From assembly GCA_051439505.1 (NCBI GenBank), contig JBFRWI010000165.1, positions 1 through 33,200 on the forward strand: a stretch of DNA of 33,200 nt, written 5' to 3'. The notes under the pieces are model-generated. The model was not told the origin of the DNA. It made no database searches and was given only the letters and a program-made list of their open reading frames with translations. This document shows positions 8,444 through 33,200 of the stretch, piece by piece. The stretch is from Hormoscilla sp. (GTDB lineage Bacteria; Cyanobacteriota; Cyanobacteriia; Cyanobacteriales; Desertifilaceae). Both the position numbers and the translations under genes were made by a program. Numbering within the stretch: position 1 is the stretch's first letter; every line of letters begins with the position of its first letter.

Positions 8444-8869
8444 CTAACCCGTTGGTCGATTCATCACAAATATATTGCGATTGCGGTCTCCCACCCTTTC
8501 GTAGATGAACTTGTCCACCCCCTCAATTGCCAGATACACTCCCAAACCCCCGATCGGTCTATCTTCTAAAGGTCTATTCAACATTTCCTCTGCTACCGTT
8601 TTCTTTTGGGTCGGATCGTAGGCTTCCCCTGTATCTTCAATCCAAAGTGTTAAAGTTTTCTCATCTATTTTTGCCTGCAATTGGACCTCCCCTTCTAGTT
8701 CCGCTTCCTCATATCCGTGAGTAATAATATTGGTGGCAACTTCATCCACTGCTAGCCGCAGTTTATAGGATAATTTTTTGTCCAATCCTGCCGTTTTTGC
8801 TGCTGCCATCACGTATTGCGCGATCGCACTTAAAGACTCCAGCTTTCCGGATACTTTCAAACTTTCCAT
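8444..8869 (-). CDS. RsbW/SpoIIAB-like anti-sigma-factor Ser/Thr kinase (HATPase_c), Slr1861-like
   Basis: LAVDEVATNIITHGY, IEDTGEAYDP, RPIGGLGVYL. Confidence 0.9.
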   Translation of the reverse strand: MESLKVSGKLESLSAIAQYVMAAAKTAGLDKKLSYKLRLAVDEVATNIITHGYEEAELEGEVQLQAKIDEKTLTLWIEDTGEAYDPTQKKTVAEEMLNRPLEDRPIGGLGVYLAIEGVDKFIYERVGDRNRNIFVMNRPTG

Positions 8870-8917
8870 AGGAACACCTCCTTTTTGCTGACTTTTGCTT
8901 TAATTTGATGGGCTATA

Positions 8918-10384
8918 TTACCCAAGCATTTGATTCAATTCTTGTCTGTCAACTGACGGGTAGCGATGCACCGCTAGCATGGTAATGTCATCAAACTGTG
9001 GCGCGTCATCCATATAAGCAAACAAACTGCTTTTTATCCGCTCCAATAACTCAGATGCTGATGCTGCTTGGTTCTCTATAAGTTCGCGCAGTCGCTTGTC
9101 AGTAAATAACTTACCCTCAGGGGATTTGGCTTCAGTCACCCCGTCTGTATAGCTAATTAAAATGTCACCCGGTTCTAGCTGCACCTGCTGAATGCCAAAC
9201 TTCATCTTCGGCATCATTCCCACTGCTGGTCCCGTTGATGGAAGCGTTAACTTCACGCCTTTGTCCCCGACGACAAAAACCGGTTCATGTCCCCCATTAA
9301 TGTAAGTCAGCAAGCCAGTAGCCGGATCTAGCACGGCAAAAAATACTGTGGCAAACATACTCATTTGCCAGTGATAAAGGCCGACGTAGTCGTTCGTGAG
9401 GGCGATCGCGCTCAAAGCATTGATATGAGCTAAATTAATTGATTCGCAATCGCAGATCCAGCCGGTACTGGGCTGATTTTCCTGAAGAATATCCGATGGG
9501 GATCCTTCCAGTTGACTTTGCTTGGAAAAGATGCGGATCAAGCTGCGGAATAGAGCCATAAACAGGGCTGCACCCACCCCCTTGTCGCACACATCCGCAA
9601 TTACCAGTCCTACATGCCCATTACTCAGCTCGAACACATCGTAGAAGTCCCCCGCGCATTGCTTGGCCGGATGGAAACAAGTTGCTATCTCCCAGTTGGG
9701 CAGTTGTGGGATTTCATAGGGGAGAAAATCTATCTGAATCTGCCTGCCTTTTTCTAGTTCGGCGTCCAGAGCTTTTGCATACTGGTTGAGTTTTGAATAT
9801 AGCCGCGCATTTTCCAGCACTAGCGCTATCTGATTGGTAGTTGCCTGCATCAGAGCGGCGCTTTTATTGGTAAAATGATTGGGAGCTGAGTGCAAAAGTG
9901 TGAGAATTCCCAGCAACTCCCCACCTCTGAGAATGGGAATGCCTAAGGCCGATCGCACCTGGTAAGGCTGATTGGGCAGGGTTACCCAGCGATCGTCTGT
10001 CTCCGTGTCCGCGATCGATCCTATTTGGCGGTGGCGCGAAACCCAACCTGCTAGCCCCTTGTCCAAGACATTGCCGATCAGGCGATCGCGCTGTTCTGGC
10101 GTCACCTCCGCGCGGGTGAGAATCGCGTCTACGATCTTACCTGCTGGATCTAGGATAAACAGACTGCCTTTCTCTGCACCCGTTAGATCTGCTGCTAGGT
10201 CTAAGGTTTGCTGCAAGGCTTTTTTTAGCACCCCTTCTTCCGATGGCGTGCTGGCCATCGTCACCAAATTCTCCAGCAGCATCGTTTGAGCCTCTAAAGC
10301 CGTTCTCTCGTTTTTGAGTTTGGCCACTTCTGCGCGCAGCGCTGCTAATTCTGAGTTCTCGCCTGGTAAATTTTGACTATTCAT
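8918..10384 (-). CDS. GAF + SpoIIE/PP2C phosphatase (RsbU/IcfG-like)
   Basis: GAF domain, then AGDFYD, IADVCDKGVGAALFM, YINGGHEP, YTDGVTEA and FDDITML. Confidence 0.9.
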   Translation of the reverse strand: MNSQNLPGENSELAALRAEVAKLKNERTALEAQTMLLENLVTMASTPSEEGVLKKALQQTLDLAADLTGAEKGSLFILDPAGKIVDAILTRAEVTPEQRDRLIGNVLDKGLAGWVSRHRQIGSIADTETDDRWVTLPNQPYQVRSALGIPILRGGELLGILTLLHSAPNHFTNKSAALMQATTNQIALVLENARLYSKLNQYAKALDAELEKGRQIQIDFLPYEIPQLPNWEIATCFHPAKQCAGDFYDVFELSNGHVGLVIADVCDKGVGAALFMALFRSLIRIFSKQSQLEGSPSDILQENQPSTGWICDCESINLAHINALSAIALTNDYVGLYHWQMSMFATVFFAVLDPATGLLTYINGGHEPVFVVGDKGVKLTLPSTGPAVGMMPKMKFGIQQVQLEPGDILISYTDGVTEAKSPEGKLFTDKRLRELIENQAASASELLERIKSSLFAYMDDAPQFDDITMLAVHRYPSVDRQELNQMLG

Positions 10385-10497
10385 ATTCCCCCGTGCTATG
10401 CAGTTCCCTTACTCCAGGAGGGAGTCCCTTGTTTAGAGGTGTACCCGCCTGCTTGGTAATCTTATCCTACTATAGCACGTAGGTCAGCTTCCTTGGG

Positions 10498-10545
10498 AGT
10501 CAGTTGTCAGTTGCCAGTTGCCAGTTGTCAATTGTCAGTTGTCAT
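10498..10545. repeat. Degenerate heptamer tandem repeat (GTCAGTT/GCCAGTT)
   Basis: Run gtcagttgtcagttgccagttgccagttgtcaattgtcagttgtc, typical of cyanobacterial STRR-type repeats. Confidence 0.8.
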
Positions 10546-10587
10546 TTCTCCATTCTCAATTATCCATTTCTCCCAAAGCTTCTGGCT

Positions 10588-11394
10588 TCAAAAACTTGAC
10601 TGAATAATCCCTCCTTCTACACGTTGGGCGGCACCATTGATCGCTGAAGCCTTTGCCGAACTCAAGAACACTATTGTATCCGCTACCTCTTCCACCCTGG
10701 CAAAACGCTGAATCAACGAAGATGGTTGCGTTTTGAAGAAATTATCAGTTAATTCAGAAATTGACTGACCTGTAGATTGAGAGATTCCTCCCAAATACTT
10801 CTCCACCCCTGAAGTCCAAGTGGGACCGGGCAGGATACTATTGACCGTGACATTAGTGCCTTTGGTCAGTTCTGCCATCCCCCGTGCCAAACCAATTAAT
10901 GCCGTTTTCGTCATCGAGTAATGGATCATGTCTGGGTACGGTTTCACTCCCGTCTCACTTGCGATTAGCAGAATTCTGCCGCTATTTCGTTCCAGCATGT
11001 GCGGCAAAAAACTACGGGACAGGCGCACCGCACTCATCACGTTGACATTAAAGTAATGCAGCCATTCTTCATCGGTAATTTGCGCAAATTCCTTAGCTCC
11101 AAAAATGCCCACATTATTAATGAGAACATCTAATGAGTCCTGTTTAATTATTTCCCCATAGATTTTCTCTGCTCCGGCAGATGTTCCCACATCCGCAACG
11201 ATGCCGACTACTTCACCAAGCGGACTGAGTTCCTTGACTGTCGCCTCTACTGTTTCCGATTCTTCCGGAACGGTAGAGCGACCATTGATAAATACTTTCG
11301 CACCTTCCTGGAGAAAAGCTCTAGCTGTCGCCTTGCCAATTCCAGATGTTGACCCCGTGACCAATACCTTTTTTCCTGCCAAGCCTAAATCCAT
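10588..11394 (-). CDS. SDR family oxidoreductase
   Basis: VTGSTSGIG, NNVG and YSMTK (YxxxK) motifs. The ATG at 11394 follows an AAGGAG RBS. Confidence 0.92.
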   Translation of the reverse strand: MDLGLAGKKVLVTGSTSGIGKATARAFLQEGAKVFINGRSTVPEESETVEATVKELSPLGEVVGIVADVGTSAGAEKIYGEIIKQDSLDVLINNVGIFGAKEFAQITDEEWLHYFNVNVMSAVRLSRSFLPHMLERNSGRILLIASETGVKPYPDMIHYSMTKTALIGLARGMAELTKGTNVTVNSILPGPTWTSGVEKYLGGISQSTGQSISELTDNFFKTQPSSLIQRFARVEEVADTIVFLSSAKASAINGAAQRVEGGIIQSSF

Positions 11395-11444
11395 AATTTT
11401 CTCCTTTTCGGGGTGAAGGGATTGATGCTTCACCCTCGATCTTT

Positions 11445-11786
11445 CTACAGGTTTTCTATCTGAGCCGCGTCGTACTCATCCAGAATATACACGCTCTGAT
11501 CGAAGCCCGTCTTCTTAATAGTATCCAACACTAGATCCTGAACACCCACCATATAGATGTCAACAGATGGACCCATCTTTTGCTTGGAGAAAATCAGCAC
11601 CCGCAGACCAGCACTGGCCATAAACTCTAGGTCTTGCATTAGCAAAACCAGGCGTTTGGGATTTGCTGCTGCTGCTTCTTCTACCTTATCCTTGAACGCT
11701 CCTGCTGTCGAACCATCCAGTTCTCCTGATAAAGTAATTTTCGCGATGCCGCTGCTTGTTGTTTCTAGAGTTGCGTCAAAAGCCAT
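11445..11786 (-). CDS. STAS anti-sigma-factor antagonist (Slr1859-like)
   Basis: LSGELDGSTA, LEFMASAGLRVL with the phospho-acceptor Ser, and KTGFD. Confidence 0.92.
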   Translation of the reverse strand: MAFDATLETTSSGIAKITLSGELDGSTAGAFKDKVEEAAAANPKRLVLLMQDLEFMASAGLRVLIFSKQKMGPSVDIYMVGVQDLVLDTIKKTGFDQSVYILDEYDAAQIENL

Positions 11787-11835
11787 AATTTTCTGCTATT
11801 ACTGTTTGTAGTAAGCGCTTTAGCGCTTCTTCGCG

Positions 11836-13950
11836 CTACTTGCCCACGAGGATGACCACAGATCGATCGCCCAGCAGGATGCCGTGCTGTTCTGAGAGCA
11901 CCGGTTCCGTACCCGGTTGCCAACTCCCCTGGGGGTCACCGGTGTTAGCGAAGACATGCCACTGCATTCCGTCTCCCAGTCCTGGGATGTCAAACCAATG
12001 AGCTTCCCAGTGCATATTCATCGCCACATAGATATAATTATCTGGTACTGTGCCTTCTTTGGCATGTTTGCCGCAGAGCATAAAGGCCAGGGTACTGCTG
12101 GAGTCCGACCAGTCCGCGTTCCATGCCTGGGTACCATGCCAGCTAATATCAGCATAGCCGCTGCCGACGTAGTCCCGATTCTGAAAATGATACCGATTTC
12201 TCAGCACTGGGTGGGCTTTGCGAAAAGCAATGCAATTCTTGACAAAGTTAAATATGTCGGTATTGCGTTCCAATAGGGTCCAGTCCAGCCAGTTCAGATC
12301 GTTATCGTGGCAATAGGTATTGTTATTGCCATGCTTGGTGCGCCCCATCTCATCTCCCATCAGCATCATGGGCACCCCCTGACTCACCATCAACATGGCG
12401 ATCGCATTCTTTACCTGCCGGTGCCGCAGATCGTTAATCCACTGGTTATCCGTCGGGCCTTCCCAACCGCAGTTCCAACTATCGTTATCGTTAGTCCCGT
12501 CATTATTGTTTTCCCCGTTGGCTTCGTTATGCTTGCCGTCATAGGAAACCATATCCATCAGGGTAAAACCGTCGTGGGCCGTAATGAAGTTTATCGATGT
12601 TGCCGGTGCCCTTCCCGCCCAAGCATAGAGGTCCGGGGAACCTTGTAACCGCTGGGCCATATCCCCGACCGTTCCATCTCCCTTCAGGAACTTGCGGATG
12701 CCATCCCGATACTTGCCATTCCACTCCGCCCAGCGTCCGAAGGCGGGGAAAGAACCCACTTGGTAGAGTCCGCCTGCATCCCATGCTTCAGCTATCAGTT
12801 TGCATTTAGCTAAGATCGGATCGAAAGCTAGGGTTTCTAACAGGGGCGGGTTCGCTAAAGGTGCCCCCCAAGGATCCCGTCCCAAGATCGAGGCCAGGTC
12901 AAAACGAAAGCCATCAATGTGATATTCACTCGCCCAGTAGCGCAGGCAATCTAGTACGATATTCCGGACGATCGGGTTATTGCAGTTGAGAGTATTGCCA
13001 CAGCCCGAGAAGTTATAGTAGTAACCTTCCGGCGTCAGCATGTAGTATGTTTTGTTGTCAATGCCTCGGAAAGAGATATAGGGACCATTTTCATTTCCTT
13101 CCGCCGTGTGGTTGAACACCACATCGAGAATCACTTCTATGCCATTTTTGTGCAATTCTTTCACTAGGGTTTTTAGTTCGTCCACTTGCATCCCTAGCTT
13201 TCCCGTCGCCGCGTATCCTGCCTTGGGGGCAAAGAAACCTACCGTACTGTATCCCCAATAGTTGTAAAGCGTTTCCCCCGTTTGCGGGTTGGGGCGGGAA
13301 TTTTCAAACTCGTCAAATTCATATATGGGCATCATTTCTACAGCATTGACGCCCAACTCCTTCAGGTAGGGGATTTTTTCTCGCAGTCCTGCAAATGTGC
13401 CTTGATGCTGAGTTTTTACCCCTGAAGAGCCATGGCGGGTAAAACTGCGGACGTGCATCTCATATACGATCATATCCTCTGGCGGTATTTCCAGAGGCCG
13501 ATCGTCCTCCCAGTCGAAATCATCTAAGGCTATTCTGGCCCGATGGTGGTAAATATCATTCCAGTCTGGCGTTACTCCCCAAACATCCCGACCCCCGATA
13601 ACCTTAGCGTAGGGGTCCATGAGAATTTTGCTTTTATCAAACCATTGACCTTCATGAAAATTGTTCGGCCCATCCATTCTATAGCCGTATTCTAGATTTT
13701 CGTAATCGAGATCGAATACCACCATGCAGTACACATTCCCTATCCGAAATTCCTCGGGAAATGGTATTTCTGCCATTGGTTCCTTTGCATCTTTTTTAAA
13801 CAGCACCAACGTACAGGATGTCGCATGGCTTGAGAAAATCGAGAAGTTAATGCCCGACGGCACTATTGTCGCACCAAAAGGAAATGGCTTCCCACGGCGC
13901 AGCTTGTACTCGCCGTAACTATGTGTCGGATGAATGTCTATTCTTTCCAT
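11836..13950 (-). CDS. glgX: Glycogen debranching enzyme (isoamylase, GH13)
   Basis: YEMHVRSFT, NYWGYST, DVVFNHTAEG, DGFRFDLAS, IAEAWD, FITAHDGFTL. Confidence 0.97.
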   Translation of the reverse strand: MERIDIHPTHSYGEYKLRRGKPFPFGATIVPSGINFSIFSSHATSCTLVLFKKDAKEPMAEIPFPEEFRIGNVYCMVVFDLDYENLEYGYRMDGPNNFHEGQWFDKSKILMDPYAKVIGGRDVWGVTPDWNDIYHHRARIALDDFDWEDDRPLEIPPEDMIVYEMHVRSFTRHGSSGVKTQHQGTFAGLREKIPYLKELGVNAVEMMPIYEFDEFENSRPNPQTGETLYNYWGYSTVGFFAPKAGYAATGKLGMQVDELKTLVKELHKNGIEVILDVVFNHTAEGNENGPYISFRGIDNKTYYMLTPEGYYYNFSGCGNTLNCNNPIVRNIVLDCLRYWASEYHIDGFRFDLASILGRDPWGAPLANPPLLETLAFDPILAKCKLIAEAWDAGGLYQVGSFPAFGRWAEWNGKYRDGIRKFLKGDGTVGDMAQRLQGSPDLYAWAGRAPATSINFITAHDGFTLMDMVSYDGKHNEANGENNNDGTNDNDSWNCGWEGPTDNQWINDLRHRQVKNAIAMLMVSQGVPMMLMGDEMGRTKHGNNNTYCHDNDLNWLDWTLLERNTDIFNFVKNCIAFRKAHPVLRNRYHFQNRDYVGSGYADISWHGTQAWNADWSDSSSTLAFMLCGKHAKEGTVPDNYIYVAMNMHWEAHWFDIPGLGDGMQWHVFANTGDPQGSWQPGTEPVLSEQHGILLGDRSVVILVGK

Positions 13951-14018
13951 TCTCTTGTAATATTTTTTGGTCCCTATTGCTGCTATTTTTTAATTGCTAA
14001 TTGCTAATTGTCAAGTCT

Positions 14019-14102
14019 CCATTAGCCATTAGCCATTAGCCATTAGCCATTAGCCATTAGCCATTAGCCATTAGCCATTAGCCATTAGCCATTAGCCATT
14101 AG
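14019..14102. repeat. Perfect heptamer tandem repeat (CCATTAG)x12, STRR-type
   Basis: Twelve exact units counted. The last unit overlaps the stop codon of the STAS gene. Confidence 0.95.
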
Positions 14103-14440
14103 CCTTTGAGTGCTGCTATTCCTTCCTCTCGTTTTTCGCAAGTTGTGAAAAAATCCAGAAATCCTGTTACGGACATGGTGTCTTGCAACTCTTCGGACAG
14201 CCCCACAAGAACTAATTTTCCTTCCTTTGCTTGGGTCTGCCGGTACATAGACAGCAGCATCCGCAACCCGGCACTGGACATGTAGGGTACTTGGGTCATA
14301 TCCATGAGAATCTTACTCCCGGGCTTGGCTAGGGGTAAAACTTGCTTTTGCACCTCCGGTGCCGTGCTAGCATCCACGTCACCATTCAGTTCTACTACCT
14401 CTATCTCTTCAACTGTCTTAATTTCGATCTCTATTGCCAT
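14099..14440 (-). CDS. STAS anti-sigma-factor antagonist (Slr1856-like)
   Basis: LNGDVDASTA, VPYMSSAGLRML, VTGFLDFF. Confidence 0.92.
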   Translation of the reverse strand: MAIEIEIKTVEEIEVVELNGDVDASTAPEVQKQVLPLAKPGSKILMDMTQVPYMSSAGLRMLLSMYRQTQAKEGKLVLVGLSEELQDTMSVTGFLDFFTTCEKREEGIAALKG

Positions 14441-14502
14441 GATTCCAATTTTTTGAGTATTCTTGCGGTCATGGGTTATTCATGACCCCTATTGCCAAAC
14501 GG

Positions 14503-14596
14503 CAAACGCGCTTCGCGTTTACTACAAACGGGTGTGGTCAAAACCAGTTGGTTGTTTTTGGCCACACCCGCGAATGGTGGGCAGTGCCCACCCTAC
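14503..14596. repeat. Cluster of three short palindromes: AAACGCG..CGCGTTTACTAC, a 40-bp GGGTGTGG...CCACACCC mini-element (14530-14569), and an inverted GTAG REP
   Basis: Each motif recurs elsewhere in the window (26370-26452, 17112-17362 and 794-858 respectively). Confidence 0.8.
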
Positions 14597-14605
14597 CAAC
14601 GATGG

Positions 14606-16429
14606 TTAAACGGGGACTATCTCTACCTTGACTTTAACCCGCTCTTTGGTATCGGGCAACTTGACTGTCAAGCCATCGGCGTCGAAGTCGCTGTAGGCTT
14701 TGCCGTCAATTTCACAGGAGCCAATTTTAATACTCCCTGCTGGTAGAATATCGGGGGACACCCGCAGGATGTTGTCCGGGAACCCTCCTGGTATCGGTTT
14801 GAAGTAAAAGGTCATCGGTTGTTTGGTGATCAGCAGGTTCGTATACACTGCCGCTAGATAGCACAACTCCGTCGAGTGATAACCACTCATGGAGTGAGAA
14901 CCTTTGCCCCGTTCGTTTCCACCGGCGAGGAAGGGAATGCCGTTGGCCAAAACGTTGAAGTACACCCCGCCATCTTCTGTATCCAGGAACCAGGCATTGT
15001 AAAATGCTGCTGATTCCCGAGCCAAACGGTGATATTCTTCATTTCCCAAGGATCCTGCTAGGATGTAGTAGGCCAGGATGCCCTGTTCTTGCTGCCACCA
15101 GGCTTTGCGATCGTGCCAGACATGGCGATAATCAGTTTCGCCTTCCCCCAGTACCCGCTCTACAACATCGTACCATCCGCCGCGCTGTTGGTCCCCGCCT
15201 GTAGCTGGCATGATCTCTGCTATTTTTTCCGCCAGCTTGACATACTTATCTTTCGCTTTCAGATGCTGCATTCGCATCAGGTTCCAGGCGATCTTCAGGT
15301 TGTGACCGACTACGGCCCGGTTTTGCTGCCACCCCCAGGTCTGGTCGGGACTCCAGTCCTGGTAAAACTTCTCATTGACAAAGGGACTGTTCTCGTAATC
15401 TGGAAAACGTCCTTCGATCGTATCAAAGGTGTATTCCAGCATATCAGCGTATTCCTGCTTGCCAGTGGCCAACCACAGGTTAATCAGATATGCTGGAGCA
15501 TGGTCCCCCACCGAGTTCCAATTCTTTTTCCCTTTGTTGCGGCCCAAGGACTCGCTGACGGGGTCTAGGGTCACCGGATCCAGATGGGAGAAGTACCCGC
15601 CATGGTCGCTTTTGTCCAGGAAAAAGTCCTGAAATAGCTTGATGGTCTTCTCCGTGTCGTCCATGATCTTCGGGTCCCCATTTGCCCGATAGGTCTGGAT
15701 CGGGCCAGCTAGGGCGTATATTTGCTCGTAGGCCGGGATAGCGTCATAGTCATCCCCGAACTCTGAGGCGAAGATTTTCTGTTCCCGTGCTCCCTGCACG
15801 TCGATGCCGTGATACCAATAGACTATGTCTTCGTCTAGGTCCACAAACCGCATGTGGTCCCGCAGGTATTCGGTGCCTTTTTCTGCTGCTTCCAGGAACT
15901 TGTCTTCCCCCGTCATCATGAATGCACTGGCAAACCCGTACACCAGGCGGGATATGGTGTCCGTTTCTTGGCGGAAATTATCCAGGGACCTGACACCTGA
16001 CAGACTCAGGCTGGTACGATAATTGCGGTAGTCTATCTCTTCTTCACCAAACTGGGCCTTCAGGTAAAATTTGGCTAGCGATCGCACCTGATCTACCCAC
16101 CAATTTGGCTTCTCGAAAATATAATCCTTTTCCGTGCGCCCCACGAACACCATTTGTCGGGCTTCAAATATGGGACTATCTGGATAAAACACCCCATACA
16201 CGAATACATAGCGACCCGGAACCAGCATCGATCGCATTTGGCCCGTAGCATCCGGGTAGGCTTCATCTAGATTCTGGATCAATTTGGCATAGGCCGTTGC
16301 CCCAATTTTTGCCTGGAACTCCCGACCATCCGATGTTTTGATGCCAAACATTTCCGTCTTGGAGTCGTACTGCTGGGTCACGTACCCCGCGATCAGGTCT
16401 GAAAAGGAAAATTCTACGTTACTCCCCAT
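14606..16429 (-). CDS. AGE-family epimerase/isomerase (N-acylglucosamine 2-epimerase superfamily), Slr1855-like
   Basis: ISRLVYGFA, NWNSVGDH, VGHNLKIAW, KAWWQQEQ and KGSHSMSGYH resemble the (alpha/alpha)6-barrel His motifs. Position between DJ-1 and STAS/glgX fits the icfG cluster. Confidence 0.85.
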   Translation of the reverse strand: MGSNVEFSFSDLIAGYVTQQYDSKTEMFGIKTSDGREFQAKIGATAYAKLIQNLDEAYPDATGQMRSMLVPGRYVFVYGVFYPDSPIFEARQMVFVGRTEKDYIFEKPNWWVDQVRSLAKFYLKAQFGEEEIDYRNYRTSLSLSGVRSLDNFRQETDTISRLVYGFASAFMMTGEDKFLEAAEKGTEYLRDHMRFVDLDEDIVYWYHGIDVQGAREQKIFASEFGDDYDAIPAYEQIYALAGPIQTYRANGDPKIMDDTEKTIKLFQDFFLDKSDHGGYFSHLDPVTLDPVSESLGRNKGKKNWNSVGDHAPAYLINLWLATGKQEYADMLEYTFDTIEGRFPDYENSPFVNEKFYQDWSPDQTWGWQQNRAVVGHNLKIAWNLMRMQHLKAKDKYVKLAEKIAEIMPATGGDQQRGGWYDVVERVLGEGETDYRHVWHDRKAWWQQEQGILAYYILAGSLGNEEYHRLARESAAFYNAWFLDTEDGGVYFNVLANGIPFLAGGNERGKGSHSMSGYHSTELCYLAAVYTNLLITKQPMTFYFKPIPGGFPDNILRVSPDILPAGSIKIGSCEIDGKAYSDFDADGLTVKLPDTKERVKVKVEIVPV

Positions 16430-16464
16430 TCTTCAGCTTGCCTCTTAATTTTTTGTTGTTAAAA

Positions 16465-17070
16465 CTAGCTATTTTTCTTGTCCATTTCTGCCAAGAAAAT
16501 CTGCATAAATTCCTCGACTACCCCTGGGTGACGCCCCGATATCAGACCTCCGTCAATATAGGTTTCCACCGTTTCTCCATTCTCATACATTACATTTCCA
16601 CCAGCATTTTCCACGTCGCAAAGGATGTTGTGGGCGCAGGTTACTTTCCGACCTTTCATCAGTTCTGGATCTGCGCAAAATAGCCACATACTATGACAAA
16701 TTGTCCCGACCTTTACTTCGTCTGCATCCATGGCCTTGACCGCTTTGCGGAGAAATTCCACCGCTGGCGACTGGTTGGGCTGACCTGGTTGTACCTGCAC
16801 TTGATAGCGCAGGCGATCCATCGCATAACCGCCAATCAAGATAAAACCTTTGTAAGCTGATACATCAACATCTTGGAAATCTTTCGTGACCGTGACTTCT
16901 TCTGTGTGGTCGTTTCCCTTGAAAGTGAGGCTGGGCTGATTCCAAAGATTGGAAATATATTCTACTTCGTATCCATTTTTCGGGAAAAATTCTCCAAATA
17001 GACGATATTCTGTTTCGTCAAAGTGTTCCTCAACGATTACGCCGATCTTACCTTTGCTTGCCGTTGTCAT
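16465..17070 (-). CDS. DJ-1/PfpI family protein, Slr1854-like
   Basis: EHFDETE, ILIGGYAMDRLR and the nucleophile elbow TICHS. Confidence 0.9.
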   Translation of the reverse strand: MTTASKGKIGVIVEEHFDETEYRLFGEFFPKNGYEVEYISNLWNQPSLTFKGNDHTEEVTVTKDFQDVDVSAYKGFILIGGYAMDRLRYQVQVQPGQPNQSPAVEFLRKAVKAMDADEVKVGTICHSMWLFCADPELMKGRKVTCAHNILCDVENAGGNVMYENGETVETYIDGGLISGRHPGVVEEFMQIFLAEMDKKNS

Positions 17071-24474: not shown

Positions 24475-25698
24475 CTACCTATTGACTGTACTGGGGAGTG
24501 ATGCGGCAATGGCATCGGCAATGGGCAGATAATTATCAAGCAAACTCTCGGGGACATCATTGACGAGACTGGGCAAGGTTGTAATGTTAGGATTGTAAGG
24601 CACTTCTAACGGTTGTAACCCAAGAGTTGTTCCACTAGGCAAACTCCAGTTTTCTTCAATCCAATGGGAGACTTTTGTTCTCCAAGTTTTGTTCTTTTCG
24701 GCAACTGGTGGCATCGGTGTTACCAGAAAGCGCAGATCTGGTTTGCCTTGATAGTCCCGTTGTTTGCGAACGCCCTGCACGACCCAATGCAGTCCTGCAA
24801 AACTTTGGTCCGTAGGTGCAAAGCAGATGATTGCTGTATCGGCTAGATCGAATAAGGCGATCGCGCTGGCATCGTTAAACCCAGGGCGGGCATCAATCAG
24901 GATAACATCGGGATTAAGTTGAGCTTTAATACCTGCCATCAGTTGCTCTACAGGATTTTCTTCTCTCCGATAAAAAACTTGCCAAGTTCTCCGATCGAGG
25001 TCTGCCAACCGATGAATATAATTTTCGTCATACTCCCCTACCGGGACTAAAAACAGTTCGCCACGAGTCCGCAAGTCGATCTTGCAGATACAGCTCTCAA
25101 TGGTCGGATAATTTTCTTCGGGAGTCAGAAAGCGTTGGTGCAAGTAATCCAGCACCCCATACTGTTCTTCATTAAGAATCTCAACATCTGGTTGCAACAA
25201 GATTGATAGTCCCGGAGCTTCCAAGTCGAAATCTACGATCGCCACCCGACGATTTCGGGTAGCCAATATCCCGGCGACTAATCCTAATGCGGTAGAGCGA
25301 CCTACCCCTCCCTTGAAAGAGTAAAAAGTCACAATTAATGGGCGTTTAGGAGTATCTTCATCCAATTCTACTGGTTGGTCAGGTTCCGCTGCCATTAAGA
25401 TGTCTGACCAAAGAGGTAGCCGAAGCTGGAAATATTCGGGAGGCTTTTCTTCGGGAGTCAACAATTCATAGCCTGAAATTGGATATTTACTCAGGTGAAA
25501 ATCGATATCTGCTAGTAGATTGTCAATTTTTTGTTCTCGTTCATCTGACGGTAGTCCATCAAAACAACTCGTAACAATCCTAATTCTCAGCCAACCCAAT
25601 GAGGTCCGCTTGATACTCACCTGTGCTTGTGTATCTTCAGTCTGTAACCGACTGGTCAGATGGGTCTTAATCTTTTCAGATAATGTAGTAAAATCCAT
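24475..25698 (-). CDS. ParA/MinD-like ATPase (KGGVGRS variant) with N-terminal BolA/MNT-like domain
   Basis: VTFYSFKGGVGRST, VDFDLEAPGL, GVLDYL, ILIDARPG. N-terminus IRIVTSCFDGL...ERE...LLTPEE. Confidence 0.8.
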   Translation of the reverse strand: MDFTTLSEKIKTHLTSRLQTEDTQAQVSIKRTSLGWLRIRIVTSCFDGLPSDEREQKIDNLLADIDFHLSKYPISGYELLTPEEKPPEYFQLRLPLWSDILMAAEPDQPVELDEDTPKRPLIVTFYSFKGGVGRSTALGLVAGILATRNRRVAIVDFDLEAPGLSILLQPDVEILNEEQYGVLDYLHQRFLTPEENYPTIESCICKIDLRTRGELFLVPVGEYDENYIHRLADLDRRTWQVFYRREENPVEQLMAGIKAQLNPDVILIDARPGFNDASAIALFDLADTAIICFAPTDQSFAGLHWVVQGVRKQRDYQGKPDLRFLVTPMPPVAEKNKTWRTKVSHWIEENWSLPSGTTLGLQPLEVPYNPNITTLPSLVNDVPESLLDNYLPIADAIAASLPSTVNR

Positions 25699-25700
25699 GA

Positions 25701-26147
25701 TTATGACGTTTCTCCTTGTTTATCCAACAATAGTCTGTGTATTTTTTGGACCGCCTCTATAAACCGTTTGCTGTCTTTCTCGTTGCCCAATTTGTTTGAG
25801 TAGCGTAATTCATCATTGCGCCATTGGGATACAATTTTGTTCCATGCCTCTCGATAACCATTCGTGCGGTCCAACGAGATTAATCGTTTTACTGAATCCA
25901 CACAATCTAACAACTTTGCTAGATTATGTAAATCCGCTCCTTGTAGTCCCTTCTTAAACACCTGAGTATCCTTGAAGTTATTTTTGTCCTCCTCGTCACA
26001 GATGAGAGATTTTAGGGCACATTCAATAGCATACCCACCCAGATAAATAGCACCGGTCCAACGCTTTTGGTTATGCAGAACCTGAGCATCTTCAAGGCGA
26101 CGACGAGAAGCACCTAGCTGGACGCGCCTGTCATAAGTATCTGGCAA
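25701..26147 (-). CDS. HEPN domain protein
   Basis: RRLEDAQVL, AIYLGGYAIECALKSLI, HNLAKLL, W...LRYS. TTG start after GGAGG; 2-bp gap to the ATPase. Confidence 0.8.
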   Translation of the reverse strand: MPDTYDRRVQLGASRRRLEDAQVLHNQKRWTGAIYLGGYAIECALKSLICDEEDKNNFKDTQVFKKGLQGADLHNLAKLLDCVDSVKRLISLDRTNGYREAWNKIVSQWRNDELRYSNKLGNEKDSKRFIEAVQKIHRLLLDKQGETS

Positions 26148-26455: not shown

Positions 26456-29400
26456 TCAAAGTCTTACGCCTTCGATCTCTTCTTCTGCCCGATCGTACAA
26501 CTCCCGCAACTTCTCCAACTTCTCTCCATCGGGTTGCCAGAAACCTCGCCCATTCGCTTCTAACATCCGACCCACTATATTCCGAAATGCCTCGGGGTTC
26601 GCTTCTCGCAGTTTGGACGCCATCTGCCCATCTAATGCATAGGTCTCTGCTGCCTGGTCGTACACCCAACTATCGGTGAAATTTGCTGTCCCTCCCCAAC
26701 CAATTAATGCTGTCATCCGCTGGGATATCTCATAGGCACCCCCCGAACCTTGATCTGCCATTGCTTCTGCCCATTTCGGATTTAGCAATTTGGTCCGATA
26801 TTCCATCCTCAGCACATCTTCTAAGTTCCGGGGTGTCGTATCTTTGGAGAAACTTTCTACAAAACTGGCCTGCACTTTTTCGCCCCGCTGTTTCTCTGCT
26901 GCTTGTTTTAATCCTCCCGTGTTCGCGTAATATTCCTGTATGTCTGTCAGGCCATATTCCACTGAGTCGATTTCTTGGATGATGCGATCGGTCGTCTGCA
27001 ACAGTTGATTAAATATTTCCTGTCTCGCTTCTCCTTTGTCCTTCCTGCCATAACTGAAGCGGTTCCGCCCCGCCCATGTATCCCCTAACTCGGACCCTGT
27101 TTCCCAGTTCCCGTCTACTACCCGATCGTTCACTAGGGAACCAAAATCTCCGGCGGGGTTAGAAAACAGTCTCGCTGCTGCATTTTCTACACCTTGCTTT
27201 TGCAAAGCTAAGGCATGTTTGCGGATAAAGTTCATCTCTTCGGGTTCCTCGGCATCCGCCGCCCTTTGGAACAAGTCGTCCAGCAATTCAATGATGTTCG
27301 CAAAGCTGTCTCGGAAGATCCCCGAAAGGTTGCCTAAAACATCAATCCGGGGATGATTTAATTCGGATAATGGTTTTAATTCATAGCGGACTATCCGCCC
27401 GGTTCCTTCTTTCACTGGAGAGGCCCCTACTAATTCTAGCAAAATCCCGATCGACTCTCCCCTGGTTTTGATTGCATCTAATCCCCACAGCATCACTGCT
27501 ACGGTTTCGGGATATTTTCCCTCTTCCTGAAGATGCTGGGCGAGGATCTTTTGCGCTATCTCTTGCCCCCGATCGCGCGCGGCAGGTGAGGGCATGCGAT
27601 AGGGGTCTAAGGCATGAATATTGCGACCGGTGGGCAATACTCCCGGACCATCCCGCAAGAGATCTCCACCTGGGGCGGCGGGGATATACTCGCCGTTCAA
27701 TCCTCGCAGCAGGTTGGTTAATTCATCTGGGGTTTGCATTAATAATTCGCGAATTGCCGATGATGATGTCTCGGGGCGATCGCCCAAATAAGCCTCCAGA
27801 TAGGATGTCATTTCCTCTTCATCGGGGGCTTTTCCCAATACATGCAACCCCGAGGAAAACAGCCGTTGTTCCAATATTTGTAGGTATTCGTAAATGTTGA
27901 CAAAATAGCGGTTTAATGCTTCAGCACTAAACATGCGCGCATTCTCAGATGTAAAGGCAATGCCTAATTTTTTTGCGTCCTCGAAGGGACAGTCGGCATC
28001 TAGTCCCGCGTCTACAATTTTCTGGCAAATAGCTTCCTTGAGGACGTAATCCTTTTCGGGGGATTCCCGATATTCGGAGATTAAATCTCGCAAGGCCAGC
28101 AATTCTTTGTATAACCCCGCCCGACCGTAGGGCGGGACATTGTGCGAAATTAAAACTCCATAGCCCCGCCGCTTTGCTAGCATAGATTCGGAGGGGTTGT
28201 TGGCAGCATAGATATAAAGATGGGGTAAGTCTCCCAGGAGTATGTCCGACCAGGAATAGCCGGTATTTCCTAAGGGCGACCCCGGTAACCATTCTACCGT
28301 GCCGTGCATCCCAAAGTGGACGATCGCATCTGCTTGGAATTCATTTTGCAGCCATTTGTAGAAGGCAGCATATTGGGGATGGGGGGTCAAATCTTTTTCA
28401 AACATGAGTCGCATGGGGTCCCCGGCAATTCCTAGGGGAGGTTGCACTCCGATCCAAATATTTCCCAACTGCACGCCGCCCAGGTAAAAGTCATCTCCCA
28501 AGGTTTTAATTCCCGTACCCGTGAGGGAATGCCATTGCTTCTCGATGCGGGTGGTTAATATATATCCCAGCCATTTATCTAGGCTTTTGACATTAACCTT
28601 GTTAGGAATTATATCCGAAACTTTGTTTTCCGTTATTTCATCTGCTTCCTTGACCATGCGGATCAGTTCTTCGGCATCTTCGGGAATATCCCCGACATGG
28701 TAACCTTCATATTTGAGGGCCTGGAGGAATTTTATCAGCGATCGGGGGACGTTCAGCAAGGCCGCCGTTCCCGTGGCACCATATCCGGGGGGGAACCCAT
28801 ACAGGATAATGGCAATTTTGCGATCGCCCTTCGGCAGTTGTCGCAATTTAATCCAGTTCTTAATTCTACCGGTCAGGCGCTGCACCCGATCGGGCATCAG
28901 ATAGATGTCTTCTCCAACCAAACCGCCCAGGGGTAAGGGGTCGATCGCGCCATCAAGTTCTGGCAAAGCATATAGTACGACCGTTTGCAAGCCGCCAATG
29001 CCCTGACGAGTCCAACTGTGAATATCTTGAATCAGCAAAGGTGCGGCAACAATATAAGGTACATTCTTAGCAGAGAGAATCTGTTTAGCGACTTCCACCT
29101 GACGACCTGCTGCCATGGAACCCGCCGGACCTCCGACCAAGGGAAAGCCGATGGTAGAAACTATAGCATCTACCTTTACTGCTTCTGGGGAGAGAGAATC
29201 TATTTCTATGTTACCCCCTTGGCGCTGAGTTTGTTCGGATGTCGTAGTCATCCAATCTCGCACGGCGACGTGACCTTCCACCCCATTGATAAAAATCGGT
29301 AAAGGGATTAATTCTGCGTCCTCAAAGTAGCGAATAAGCTGGTGGATATAGGCTTGTTTTGTGACCACATGCTTGCGATAAAGTAAGATGCCCACTACGG

Positions 29401-30091
29401 GTCTTGTAGTCCGGAACTTAGAGGGATACCATTCCAGGTATTGGCGGGGAGATGTGAAATAACCCTGATAGTCGGGATGGAGTAAACCCATGTTGGGAGT
29501 TTCCACGGGGGGCGGAATTTCTCCTACCTTTAACCCCAAGTATTTCTCCGCCAGTTGCCAGCACATGGCGGCGACGTTTTCTACACCGCCAGCATTCCAG
29601 TATCCGTAAATAATCAGCCAATTGCGCAAGTCTTGCACTTTCTGGACGGGTACATACTTTAACAGCTTCGGTCCGGTCTTCAGAAAGCTGATGTAACCTG
29701 CAAGCTTGTCTTCTTCCCGTCCTTTGCTAAATTTTTCCAGGACGAATTTAACGGGTTTGGGCATTCCTTTGGGTTTATCCCCAATCTTAAAAGCCCCAAT
29801 TTGAGTCAGACTCATTAATTCTAAGGCGGACTCGAACACGAGGCGAATGGGTATCTGCTGCACCCTCTCCCGCAACCACAGGACTTGGTCGTAGTCGAAA
29901 ATGAGACTGGCAAAGAAGACATCCGCCCCTCGGAGTGCCGCTTCGACCACTTCTGGTTCCGATGCCAAGGCCCGATCGCTAAACACGCGAATATCCAGTT
30001 CGCGGCAGCGGGAAGTAGCCAGATCGGCAGCTTGACGGTACAACTGGGCATTGAAGGATTCAAACCCGGCGATCAGGACGATGCGTTTCAT
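26456..30091 (-). CDS. bchH: Magnesium chelatase subunit H family protein (CobN/ChlH/BchH), second cyanobacterial paralogue
   Basis: STIGFPLVGGPAG, HFGMHGTVEWLPG, YAANNPSES, LPTGRNIHALDP, LLNPKW. 1211 aa. Confidence 0.9.
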   Translation of the reverse strand: MKRIVLIAGFESFNAQLYRQAADLATSRCRELDIRVFSDRALASEPEVVEAALRGADVFFASLIFDYDQVLWLRERVQQIPIRLVFESALELMSLTQIGAFKIGDKPKGMPKPVKFVLEKFSKGREEDKLAGYISFLKTGPKLLKYVPVQKVQDLRNWLIIYGYWNAGGVENVAAMCWQLAEKYLGLKVGEIPPPVETPNMGLLHPDYQGYFTSPRQYLEWYPSKFRTTRPVVGILLYRKHVVTKQAYIHQLIRYFEDAELIPLPIFINGVEGHVAVRDWMTTTSEQTQRQGGNIEIDSLSPEAVKVDAIVSTIGFPLVGGPAGSMAAGRQVEVAKQILSAKNVPYIVAAPLLIQDIHSWTRQGIGGLQTVVLYALPELDGAIDPLPLGGLVGEDIYLMPDRVQRLTGRIKNWIKLRQLPKGDRKIAIILYGFPPGYGATGTAALLNVPRSLIKFLQALKYEGYHVGDIPEDAEELIRMVKEADEITENKVSDIIPNKVNVKSLDKWLGYILTTRIEKQWHSLTGTGIKTLGDDFYLGGVQLGNIWIGVQPPLGIAGDPMRLMFEKDLTPHPQYAAFYKWLQNEFQADAIVHFGMHGTVEWLPGSPLGNTGYSWSDILLGDLPHLYIYAANNPSESMLAKRRGYGVLISHNVPPYGRAGLYKELLALRDLISEYRESPEKDYVLKEAICQKIVDAGLDADCPFEDAKKLGIAFTSENARMFSAEALNRYFVNIYEYLQILEQRLFSSGLHVLGKAPDEEEMTSYLEAYLGDRPETSSSAIRELLMQTPDELTNLLRGLNGEYIPAAPGGDLLRDGPGVLPTGRNIHALDPYRMPSPAARDRGQEIAQKILAQHLQEEGKYPETVAVMLWGLDAIKTRGESIGILLELVGASPVKEGTGRIVRYELKPLSELNHPRIDVLGNLSGIFRDSFANIIELLDDLFQRAADAEEPEEMNFIRKHALALQKQGVENAAARLFSNPAGDFGSLVNDRVVDGNWETGSELGDTWAGRNRFSYGRKDKGEARQEIFNQLLQTTDRIIQEIDSVEYGLTDIQEYYANTGGLKQAAEKQRGEKVQASFVESFSKDTTPRNLEDVLRMEYRTKLLNPKWAEAMADQGSGGAYEISQRMTALIGWGGTANFTDSWVYDQAAETYALDGQMASKLREANPEAFRNIVGRMLEANGRGFWQPDGEKLEKLRELYDRAEEEIEGVRL

Positions 30092-30148
30092 ATCCCTATC
30101 CTCAACAACGATTGTTATAATTCTGATTTCAATGATAAACTAATAAGG

Positions 30149-31984
30149 CTATACAGGTGAATATTCTTTAATCATCTTTATATACCTACGGTCTGTGATC
30201 GTGGTAAGCAACTCATTGTGAAGATTTATTTTTTGTTGACGATCTAACTGACCTTTTAGTAAAGCTACAGCAATAATTACCTTTGGTAGCGGATATGGAA
30301 ACCCGGAACTCGGCTGATGTTTGAGGTAGCTGCTTAACTGCTTATCTTTATCTAAATTAGGTAATCTTTTGACACTGGCTATGTGCTCAATTACTTGTAA
30401 CGCTTGGCCAAGTCCATTTCGAGTAATCGTTTCACATATATCACTACAATTTATATCTAATAGTGGAGTTATCCCAGCAATTTGTCTAGCTGTCCAAGAA
30501 GATTTTTCCCACAGATATTTTGATGAATTTATCAAATTAGTTAATTCGGATCTTGAACCATACTTGGCTAAAAGCCACACAGCAGCAATCACGCCTGAAG
30601 GCAAGTACGAATTATTCTTATTTACAACTTTCTGAGCAAGGGTAACGATCTGAGATACGAGTTTGCCTGTGGCTGGAGTTTCCCAAGCTATAATACATCG
30701 GACCGCTGCAAAAAGTGAGACTTCATCTTCACAGTGACCGGATACAACAAATTCTTCTATCATGCTCAGTCGTTTGCTAGTCGGACCAAGCCGTGCAAGG
30801 TATTTAAATGCTGGTTCTCTGAGATTTGGATGCTCTTCTAGCAATGCGGGAATATGCTTCTCCAAATATGGATCTCCTATACGACCAAAAAGAGTAAAAT
30901 AACGCTTCAATACTTTATCCCAATTTCCTATTTTATGTTCCCTATGTAATGTTTTTTTGTATTTGTTGAATTCTTTTTTCAGTTTATCTATATGTTTTTT
31001 TTGTGTCGCTGTACTTCCTGAACCATGCTTAATACAGTTATTAATAATTGTGAGTGCTCGGTTTTCCTGAACCCAGAAGTGAGCAATTGCCTCCTTACCA
31101 GATAGTATTTTACTTTTACTGGCGTTTAGCCTGAGTCCTTGACTGCCAAGGACGTTATCTAAATTTCGTAGTAGTCGTTTTCCCTCTTCCCGCGAATTAA
31201 CACCAGCATCAACATCATCCATCCATCTAACAAAGTCTCCATTGGTAGCTTTATCTAGTTCTTCATCAATTTTGAATAAGTATGCATGTGCTAGCAAACG
31301 CGGAGCATCAAACTGGATTTGAGGTAACCCAACGCCGGAATGAGGCATGTAATAGGGACGCCACGAAAATTCTTCAAGTAAATAAAATAACAGGTTGAGA
31401 AGATTCTCACTGAACTTTCCTAGAGATGCTATGGTATTACGGAGGGCTGTTAGAGGAATGCAGTCGAAGTAATTTGCAATATCGGCAACTACAACATATT
31501 GATGCGAACGGGTGAATTCCCATATCCGTTTCTGAAATTCTGGCCACAGTATCCACCAAGGATAAGCAAAAGTATCATCGACCTGCTCTACATAATTTGG
31601 TCCGTCGTGGCTACGCGAGTAATAGGCATTATCAGAAGGCTGTGCTTTTTTTAGTTCATCTTCAAGAACTTCGACAATACATTGAAGTGCAAGGGCATCC
31701 GCTGGTTATGGGATTGCTAGACGTCGAGGTATCCCATCTCTTTTTTCCTTATTTACAAACTCAGGGGCCGATGGTTTGTAGTGACCATCAAGCACATCCT
31801 CACGCAGGCGTTCGGCAAATGGTTTAATATTTCTGTGAATGTCTAGAAAATCATGAATATCCTCTAATGGCTGCTTGCGCAGTCCATTACGAACAGTTTT
31901 TTTCCAAACCTTGACCACTTTCTGAACTTGGAAAGTTTCCTCAAGCTCTACCGATAACTTCTGTGCGCGATTAGTCCCTTGCAT
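30149..31984 (-). pseudogene. Stand-alone reverse transcriptase (UG/Abi-like, ~611 codons) interrupted by one in-frame TAA at 31706-31708
   Basis: ORFs 31706-31984 and 30149-31348 are in the same frame, and the intervening 31349-31705 is stop-free. Motifs: EKRDGIPRRLAIP*PADAL, VVVADIANYFDCI, GLPQ...APRLLAHAYL, FVRWMDD, GLRLNASKSKI. Confidence 0.88.
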
Positions 31985-32011
31985 TTGAGATAAACCTCTA
32001 GTTTTTAAACT

Positions 32012-32020
32012 TGATTATAG
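32012..32020 (-). promoter_or_regulatory. Extended -10 promoter element TGcTATAAT for the RT gene
   Basis: Minus strand TGCTATAAT lies about 28 bp upstream of the ATG, with an AGAGG RBS-like sequence in between. Confidence 0.55.
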
Positions 32021-32095
32021 CAGCCCCCGATCGCCAGTTGGAAGCAGAGCTTCCGGAACTACCCCATCGCCTGTCTTGACGAGTGCGGTGAAGGG

Positions 32096-32353
32096 TTATA
32101 CTCCATACTTTGCTCTGATCTCCTCTATGCTAACACCCTTACCCTCTCTCAGATCCTTTCGGGCCTGCGCCACCCGAGAGAGAAATTTGGGATTATGTAA
32201 CAGTAGTTCTTCCCACCAGTCTTCAGGATCTTCTAAACCCATTAGAATTCCTACTGCTACTCCTTCGCGAGTGATAATTACATAATCCTTCTGGGCCTGC
32301 TGCAAATAACCTGATAAATCTGTTTCAACTTCTTCTATTGACACTTGCTTCAC
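32096..32353 (-). CDS. Phd/YefM family antitoxin
   Basis: LSGYLQQAQ..YVIITREGVAVGILM...ARKDLREGKGVSIEEI. The GTG at 32353 overlaps the toxin stop (GTGA). Confidence 0.85.
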   Translation of the reverse strand: MKQVSIEEVETDLSGYLQQAQKDYVIITREGVAVGILMGLEDPEDWWEELLLHNPKFLSRVAQARKDLREGKGVSIEEIRAKYGV

Positions 32354-32658
32354 GGTTCTTTCCTCCCGTACTCCGATAACCACGTGATTGCTTGAGGCTT
32401 TTCTTTAATTGCTATAATTTCTACTGCTTCCGTGTCTACATTATAAATCACATCGTAGAACACGCGCAAATTATCAATTCGTAACCGGTATTGTGGCCGC
32501 TGCATTCGGATCAGACGCTTTATGCGACTTTTGCTCACTTTCTCGGGCTCATATCTGAGATGTGTCTCAATTCCATCAAGAACTTTTGCCCGATCGCTTG
32601 CTCTGAGTGCTGCTATATCATCTTCTGCTGCTGGCGAAAAAATAATCTCGAATCTCAC
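32350..32658 (-). CDS. RelE/ParE family toxin
   Basis: IIFSPAAEDDI...IKRL....YRLRIDNLRVFYDV...VEIIAI. Confidence 0.88.
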   Translation of the reverse strand: MRFEIIFSPAAEDDIAALRASDRAKVLDGIETHLRYEPEKVSKSRIKRLIRMQRPQYRLRIDNLRVFYDVIYNVDTEAVEIIAIKEKPQAITWLSEYGRKEP

Positions 32659-32734
32659 AATCGTTACAGTATATCTAACTACCGTTGATGTTTACCTACT
32701 TTTAACGAACCCCAAAATAGATCTACGGTTAGCG

Positions 32735-32971
32735 TCATTCATAAATGCTGTCTCTGCTAAAGGCTCGATCGGATAGACTCGGACTATTGAAGGGAAGTTG
32801 CGAGATCCAGGCGCGAAAATCCCTAGCCCGTTCCTCTGGTGTTTGCCAACGAGAAGCAACTCTCTCAAGCTTACCAGTCTCAAACTCTCGCGATGCAATC
32901 AAATCAGCAATTATTTTCAGTTGCTCATCGCTGAGTTTATCTATTTCTTGCTTCAGGTTTTCTTTGAGCAT
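32735..32971 (-). CDS. Small antitoxin-like protein (VapB/DUF2281-like), no adjacent PIN toxin
   Basis: LKQEIDKLSDEQL..IADLI N-terminus and SLSDRAFSRDSIYE C-terminus; GGAGG upstream. Confidence 0.6.
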   Translation of the reverse strand: MLKENLKQEIDKLSDEQLKIIADLIASREFETGKLERVASRWQTPEERARDFRAWISQLPFNSPSLSDRAFSRDSIYE

Positions 32972-33200
32972 AATTACGGTTCGTATAACCTCCTCAACCC
33001 AACAGTTCCATGATATACCAACCTATTGCTTTTGACAACCCCATATGCCCGACCCATGTTATCTTCTTCTCAACAATCGCTCAAATCTATGTATCCCAAG
33101 GGTTTTAATAATTGTTAAATTTTTATTAAGCTTGCCACTGTCCCCCCCGATCGCCGGTTATCAGCAGCTTGCTACCACATCGGACGCGCTGTCTTTATTC

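Follow-up and report, generated by a model that had tools for sequence, protein, structure and literature searches.

A UG13a-type UG/Abi reverse transcriptase gene with an internal stop codon in a variable genomic slot of Hormoscilla sp.

Described class 1 enzymes and assignment of the gene to UG13a

Among the UG/Abi reverse transcriptases (RTs), the class 1 enzymes DRT4, AbiA, DRT7 and DRT3b employ protein priming and operate without a nucleic acid template. The priming sites differ between class 1 enzymes: AbiA, DRT7 and DRT3b are primed from different sites, and the published positions include a fingers loop in AbiK and the linker between RT and helical domain in AbiA (PMC11077055). The products of DRT7 and DRT3b are defined in sequence. 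DRT4, a hexamer encoded by a single gene, synthesizes random ssDNA from Tyr125, and its defence reaction is triggered by a phage DNA-binding protein (PMC12783706); a later preprint describes an RNase output for this system. Hexamers have also been described for AbiK, DRT6 and DRT3b. DRT11 corresponds to UG5. Additional sources for this background are PMC13174585, 10.64898/2026.02.16.706125 and 10.64898/2026.10.27.754916. The group UG13a was named in 2022 (Mestre et al., PMC9226505) and is modelled in PADLOC as PDLC03749. In that study its defence prediction is given as 'inconclusive', UG19-UG23 are treated as class 1 and the class of UG13a is not stated in the main text. The passages of PMC8934634 used here do not mention UG13. 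Our literature searches, for which subscription papers were mostly out of scope, yielded Mestre et al. (2022) as the only relevant paper on the names UG13 and UG13a, and they returned neither an activity or defence test of UG13a nor relevant screens of UG/Abi RTs in cyanobacteria.

The DNA analysed here (the window) is a stretch of 33,200 nucleotides from Hormoscilla sp. (GCA_051439505.1, contig JBFRWI010000165.1). Its RT gene is located on the minus strand (30149-31984) and comprises 611 codons plus the final stop, with an internal TAA at codon 93 in the assembly. The read-through protein contains the motifs K81-x-x-G84-x-x-R87, DIANYFD (D168), GLPQ (219-222), RWMDD (253-257) and LNASK (286-290), so that the frame and all RT motifs named in the preliminary description are present. 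An RT domain consisting of fingers and palm (residues ~1-296; 31097-31984, minus strand) carries the catalytic residues D168, D256 and D257 together with W254. It is followed by a predicted alpha-solenoid (alphaRep, HEAT/ARM-like; residues ~297-611; 30152-31096, minus strand), in which no enzymatic domain was detected.

When the protein was compared with the PADLOC profiles, the model RT_UG13a scored 692 bits (E 1.9e-208) and protein residues 3-606 aligned with positions 2-587 of 589 in the model. The runner-up models UG21 and UG13b reached 162 and 113 bits. In File S1 of Mestre et al. (2022, PMC9226505), the homologue WP_055074868.1 (P0012), which shares 66% identity over 99% of the length, carries the UG13a label, as do two further homologues (P0113, P0121). 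With its 611 codons the gene also has the length of the UG13a class (~600 aa; model lengths 589 positions for UG13a versus the shorter 430 for UG13b). In a quick tree of 43 homologues, which did not take in other UG groups as outgroup, the query and P0012 fell into a 15-row clade (SH-aLRT 100) whose named members are cyanobacterial. The sister of this clade was P0015, and its cluster includes a protein assigned by NCBI to Hormoscilla sp. Taken together, membership in UG13a is near certain. The preliminary description had suggested a candidate novel RT from a little-studied clade without assigning a UG group, and novelty as a clade has to be abandoned in view of the RT_UG13a score and the labelled homologues. 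The gene shares with the catalogued group the full-length profile match, the 66% identity to a labelled member, the length of ~600 aa and the stand-alone organization, and the premature stop is the only difference of this copy.

None of the curated NCBIfam cut-offs was reached for DRT3a (31 bits vs 200), DRT4 (41 vs 450), DRT5 (47 vs 550) and AbiA (24 vs 250). The group II intron RT model scored 73 bits against a cut-off of 300, and Rfam detected no surrounding intron RNA. A profile search retrieved 414 clusters at E<=1e-30 among 1.84 billion representatives, a number that may include neighbouring groups, and a search of the ESM Atlas gave generic RT clusters only. No fused longer form of the RT was found at E<=1e-20 among 7115 candidates of 1058-3020 aa, which is weak evidence.

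The predicted structure of the read-through protein (pLDDT 88.7, pTM 0.89) is of low confidence only at residues 1-3 and 129-146. Residues ~296-606 are all-helical in this model, in agreement with the helical C-terminus of ~300 aa that had been anticipated. Foldseek ranked DRT6, AbiK, DRT4 and Abi-P2 at the top, and VIA aligned both domains with DRT6 (Z 17.4, rmsd 4.5, 446 residues), DRT4 (Z 15.6, rmsd 4.7, 439 residues) and AbiK (Z 14.8, rmsd 5.1, 467 residues). For the structures of DRT4 and DRT6 (PDB 9vdo, 9vdv, 9wy8), 439-453 residues could be superimposed on the model at 11-14% sequence identity. AbiK, AbiA and Abi-P2 (PDB 7r06, 8oz7, 7r08) likewise combine an RT with a helical solenoid, and 380-470 residues align for AbiK and AbiA; AbiA involves a HEPN domain, which UG13a lacks. 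The highest Z in VIA (21.9, above the 17.4 of DRT6) was obtained for the maturase RTs of group II introns, which also rank first in PDB sequence searches, but this match covers 283 residues of the RT core only. The alignment ends at residue ~380, and UG13a differs from these enzymes by the solenoid following the palm and by the lack of intron RNA. End to end, the two-domain architecture aligned only with Abi/DRT enzymes among the matches listed. The tail folded alone (pLDDT 92.8) matched generic HEAT/ARM solenoids (best Z 12.9), with no enzyme domain and no class 1 RT among the matches listed.

These models and fold searches predict a thumb-less RT with an alpha-solenoid like DRT6, DRT4 and AbiK, in which the class 1 feature of an RT fused to a C-terminal HEAT-like alphaRep is present. 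Because of this predicted fold and of the nearest profile models (UG21, UG19, UG20, UG22, UG23), we infer that UG13a is a class 1 UG/Abi RT. With DRT4 (UG15) and DRT6 (UG12) it has in common the single gene, the absence of an ncRNA and the fold predicted here, but the UG13a protein is about 70 aa longer than DRT4 and carries WMDD instead of YIDD. The preliminary description was right in seeing a horizontally acquired, stand-alone UG/Abi-type RT of a little-studied group with a HEAT-like tail. The profile and fold matches likewise speak against a group II intron, retron, DGR, CRISPR-associated or characterised DRT enzyme.

Genomic slot and neighbourhood of the gene

The RT gene was recently acquired by horizontal transfer and occupies, upstream of a chlH-like gene, a variable slot for toxin-antitoxin genes. 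The anchor of the slot is this CobN/Mg-chelatase gene (26456-30091, minus strand), which three congeners match up to window positions 30119-30145, where the similarity ends. In the congeners the slot holds HepT/nucleotidyltransferase, Phd, CopG, ParE-like and Uma2 genes. The RT was found in none of four congeners (94-97% complete), and three of 401 genomes from the phylum, this genome included, carry it; together with the low GC and the varied congener cargo, this distribution is a sign of mobility. No match was obtained in 50,697 phage records, and 7 of 72,556 plasmid records matched at about 30-34% identity.

The gene has a GC content of 39.9% compared with 48.2% for the genome, a value as low as that of only 0.7% of 3402 equal-sized genome windows, and its GC3 is 31% versus 53% in the chlH-like neighbour. 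The AT-richness noted before is therefore borne out by the numbers. The HIP1 octamer is indeed absent from the gene, as had been pointed out, but 19.5% of equal-sized genome windows also lack it (Poisson P 0.16), so that its absence is too weak to prove transfer. A stronger signal is the absence of the CGATCG core (P 0.004).

Upstream of the gene, direct reading of the sequence shows an extended -10 box TGC-TATAAT (32014-32022, minus strand; hexamer 32014-32019), which is not among the predictions of the promoter scanner. It lies 29 nt 5' of the ATG, close to the ~28 bp given earlier, and an AT-rich element resembling this region also precedes the gene in the close relatives L013 and L053. The intergenic gaps measure 111 bp upstream and 57 bp downstream. 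At the upstream edge of the insert there is a genus-wide, CGATCG-containing repeat (32023-32074), and since it starts at 32023 hardly anything besides the RT gene and its -10 box belongs to the insert. The ~36-bp CGATCG-containing unit was also seen at 33115-33163 and at L010:3394-3514, and it is arranged in tandem in congeners. This unit borders several cargo genes of the slot and may mark a site of gene swapping.

Next to the repeat, a Phd/YefM antitoxin gene (32096-32383) and a ParE toxin gene (32350-32658) form a pair (32096-32658, minus strand), which we regard as separate cargo of the same slot. An operon of the RT with this upstream pair was ruled out: a congener carries the pair without an RT match, and the pair does not recur beside RT homologues. 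In one congener (L011:3940-6532, genome G002) the Phd/ParE pair is preceded by no more than the 3' half of the chlH-like gene, pointing to a deletion that spans the slot. On the other side of the chlH-like gene, a HEPN-like protein (25701-26147) and a KGGVGR-motif ATPase (24475-25698; together 24475-26147, minus strand) match the PADLOC candidate system PDC-M28A/B, and thus defence-like cargo is present on both sides of the chlH-like gene.

Across 42 related loci we found no conserved partner gene beside the RT; shared neighbouring ORFs are confined to a few related genomes at a time or belong to widespread families. PADLOC matches were detected near 8 of 30 probed loci (65 hand-picked neighbours, without background control). 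They comprise Lamassu LmuB, PRTase, restriction-modification, AbiE with dGTPase, PDC-M48B and PDC-S03, as well as PD-DExK in two sister loci. Within this sample, which is centred on one subclade, restriction genes lie near the RT at L034 and L040 only. Pfam searches of 102 neighbours added MazEF, HNH, GIY-YIG, Mrr and DUF4145, along with many housekeeping genes. In two Cloacimonadota loci (L042:58-3024, L046:708-5919) a large SspC-like protein and a DUF6602/PD-DExK nuclease are encoded ahead of the RT in the same orientation, and this arrangement may be a defence operon of its own. In a single case from Longimicrobiales (L029:4385-7755), a fusion of a metallo-beta-lactamase fold with PRTase-CE adjoins the RT near a resolvase.

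Elsewhere in the window, a type I restriction HSDR_N-like ORF (1579-2214) lies between two 58-nt direct repeats (1513-2411) that share 88% of their sequence and give one Rfam match each, to CRISPR-DR28. We rejected a CRISPR array here, and dispersed palindromic repeats are more likely. Short direct and inverted repeats with arms of 18-22 nt at 1037-1448 resemble a small repeat element or MITE. The stretch 8444-17070 (minus strand) presumably forms an operon-like group, its translations resembling an anti-sigma kinase, a GAF/PP2C phosphatase, STAS proteins, a GlgX-like debranching enzyme and a DJ-1/PfpI-like protein. Two further RVT_1 genes are present in the genome (G000:C125:26795-27451, C213:3827-4468).

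The internal stop and broken copies in cyanobacteria

The stop to which the preliminary description alluded only among its proposed checks is the TAA of codon 93 (31706-31708, minus strand). Six public runs contain the stretch, and no RNA run is listed for it. Four of the six (X1-X4) belong to a single study, and the assembly may derive from one of these. In X1 both covering contigs (depth about 130 each) carry the sense base at 31708, and the same base was found in X4 (depth 4.3) and in X5 and X6, which originate from two other studies and are about 95-97% identical here. In all these sense runs codon 93 encodes Glu, as it does in the closest homologues. The contigs of X2 break at this site, the first ending at 31707 and the second starting at 31709, and this one-base break looks like an SNP bubble; in X3 the site is uncovered. 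Since four of six runs carry the sense codon and X2 breaks in this way, the stop is not fixed. Either an allele present in a minority or at strain level is involved, or the consensus is in error; contigs cannot distinguish the two. The stop allele would be null because the ATG-started product loses all three catalytic aspartates, which lie beyond the TAA and are intact in the read-through.

For a programmed stop, either read through or deliberately splitting the gene into two proteins, one might invoke that a 509-aa product 3' of the TAA has been called in a protein collection (P0002). However, a split at this position would separate K81 and R87 of the fingers from the palm, codon 93 is not a stop in any of the 42 related loci, whose breaks are elsewhere, and the sense codon in the public runs rules out programmed read-through. 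We therefore give this explanation practically no credence.

A second, independent break is present in a near relative, where X6 carries foreign sequence inserted at about 31510 (codon 159). The homologue P0015 begins at this very point with foreign residues. Among the 42 loci, 6 of 11 assessable cyanobacterial copies were broken compared with 2 of 22 others (Fisher P 0.008), and P becomes 0.04 when two doubtful non-cyanobacterial loci are scored as broken. These two were left out of the count together with four cyanobacterial and three other loci that were contig-limited or too distant. Because related copies do not count as independent and some breaks may stem from faulty assembly, the cyanobacterial excess is a lead only. 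Stops, frameshifts, deletions or a transposase interrupt the cyanobacterial UG13a genes of L022, L026, L039, L044, L052 and L053. The lineage itself shows purifying selection, with dN of 0.21-0.28 and dS of 2.4-3.1 or saturated in three of three comparisons.

Proposed function and rival explanations

Among 204 full-length homologues, D168, D256, D257, R87 and R253 are invariant and R229 is present in 203; K81 is also invariant across the family. The Trp of WMDD was considered atypical in the preliminary description, and it is unusual among RTs at large, but within UG13a it is the norm. Trp254 was found in 119 of 119 close homologues, and position 254 is W in 162, F in 21 and Y in 21 of the 204 sequences, WMDD interchanging with FMDD and YMDD among distant family members. 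This distribution rules out Trp as a special catalytic mark of this gene. No paper pairing 'WMDD' with 'reverse transcriptase' was found in our literature search. Since the equivalent Tyr238 of DRT4 stacks on the last nucleotides of the product (PMC12783706), Trp254 is most simply read as a conservative aromatic swap.

The family also deviates from group II intron RTs at motif B, where the Gly following the Gln is replaced by I, L, V or M. In group II intron RTs this Gly has a role in holding the template. Family-specific conserved residues of the RT domain are R229, D226, D42, D48 and W147, with R229 being a single inserted residue that group II intron RTs lack. The low-confidence loop of residues 129-146 (31547-31600, minus strand; pLDDT<50) contains the conserved Tyr141 (Tyr in 185/204, Phe in 3/204), a candidate priming residue located 27 positions before D168. 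In DRT4 the priming Tyr125 precedes D149 by 24 residues (PMC12783706), and the candidate is placed elsewhere than the published sites of AbiK and AbiA. Tyr212 (197/204) and Tyr69 (191/204) are more conserved than Tyr141, and no conserved Tyr was seen in the corresponding loop of four Drt4-like proteins, which score below the family cut-off and are uninformative on this point. A plasmid search for labelled DRT4 returned none. A Drt3b search for comparison of gate residues gave no match in 301 genomes, where the positive controls also remained unmatched.

As best explanation, to which we attach moderate confidence, the intact UG13a product would probably be a self-priming, template-free DNA polymerase that makes random ssDNA for phage defence. 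By analogy with DRT4, DRT6, AbiK and AbiA, the protein would oligomerise and a tyrosine, at best guess Tyr141 in the flexible loop before motif A, would take the first nucleotide. The D168/D256/D257 site would then add dNTPs without template, and Trp254 would stack on the bases added last, like Tyr238 of DRT4. Persistence of the DNA might be brought about by a phage ssDNA-binding protein or by altered dNTP pools, and growth arrest or death would be triggered. The predicted two-domain architecture, the invariant triad, the loss of the motif-B Gly and the spacing of Tyr141 point in this direction. Against it stand the defence prediction of Mestre et al. (2022), the few loci with PADLOC neighbours (8/30), the many copies among housekeeping genes, the RT core being nearer to group II intron RTs by Z and the generic solenoid character of the isolated tail; the higher conservation of Tyr212 and Tyr69 and the varying priming sites of class 1 enzymes speak against Tyr141.

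The same housekeeping surroundings, the inconclusive defence enrichment reported for UG13a (Mestre et al., 2022, PMC9226505), the structural closeness of the RT core to group II intron and G2L4 RTs and the breakage of 6 of 11 assessable cyanobacterial loci would also fit an active polymerase that has no anti-phage role and serves as repair-type enzyme or drifts as mildly costly accessory gene. We consider this rather unlikely, since only Abi/DRT enzymes aligned end to end among the matches listed and since Lamassu, AbiE, dGTPase, restriction and retron-type PRTase neighbours do occur. Defence genes, too, typically show a patchy distribution and are often lost. If UG13a acts in defence, its product might alternatively be a defined sequence (homopolymer or short repeat) set by side chains, as for DRT3b, which gates bases with one Glu and one Arg, and DRT7, which makes poly(dT). 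R229, D226, D42, D48 and W147 could serve such a purpose. However, R241 of DRT3b lies 37 residues before the first YxDD Asp and R229 only 27 before D256, so that by spacing the two arginines are not equivalent, and no partner RT or primase is present for a second strand; this variant appears unlikely to us. Even more doubtful is the extended version, in which R229, D226, D42, D48 and Trp254 would replace the template of a single-gene, Tyr141-primed system that is costly in cyanobacteria, with null alleles arising repeatedly and coexisting with the intact gene in one natural population.

Copying of an RNA template, supplied in trans or from inside the gene as in class 2 DRTs or retrons, is very improbable compared with the template-free synthesis that we prefer. 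Little space is offered by the 29 nt between -10 box and ATG and by the gaps of 111 bp upstream and 57 bp downstream, Rfam gave no match in 29900-33200 at E<=1, and the tail is an alpha-solenoid. When 400-bp flanks were compared (29 upstream, 24 downstream), no conservation was found beyond sister loci and two short promoter-proximal matches. From flank comparison, gaps and Rfam, which concern the flanks only, no conserved adjacent ncRNA of the class 2 DRT/retron kind emerged, and an RNA overlapping the ORF or encoded elsewhere is the room left for such a template.

The locus is an ordinary further member of a catalogued group. In 2022 the question of a role in defence stayed open for 16 UG/Abi groups, UG13a among them, and later work on class 1 enzymes has revealed differing products (random ssDNA, poly-dT, dCdA repeats) and priming sites. 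For this family, our analysis supplies naturally intact alleles, a tyrosine that may serve as primer and active-site residues specific to the family, and the repeated breakage in cyanobacteria together with the apparent intact/null polymorphism hints at a measurable fitness cost of the gene.
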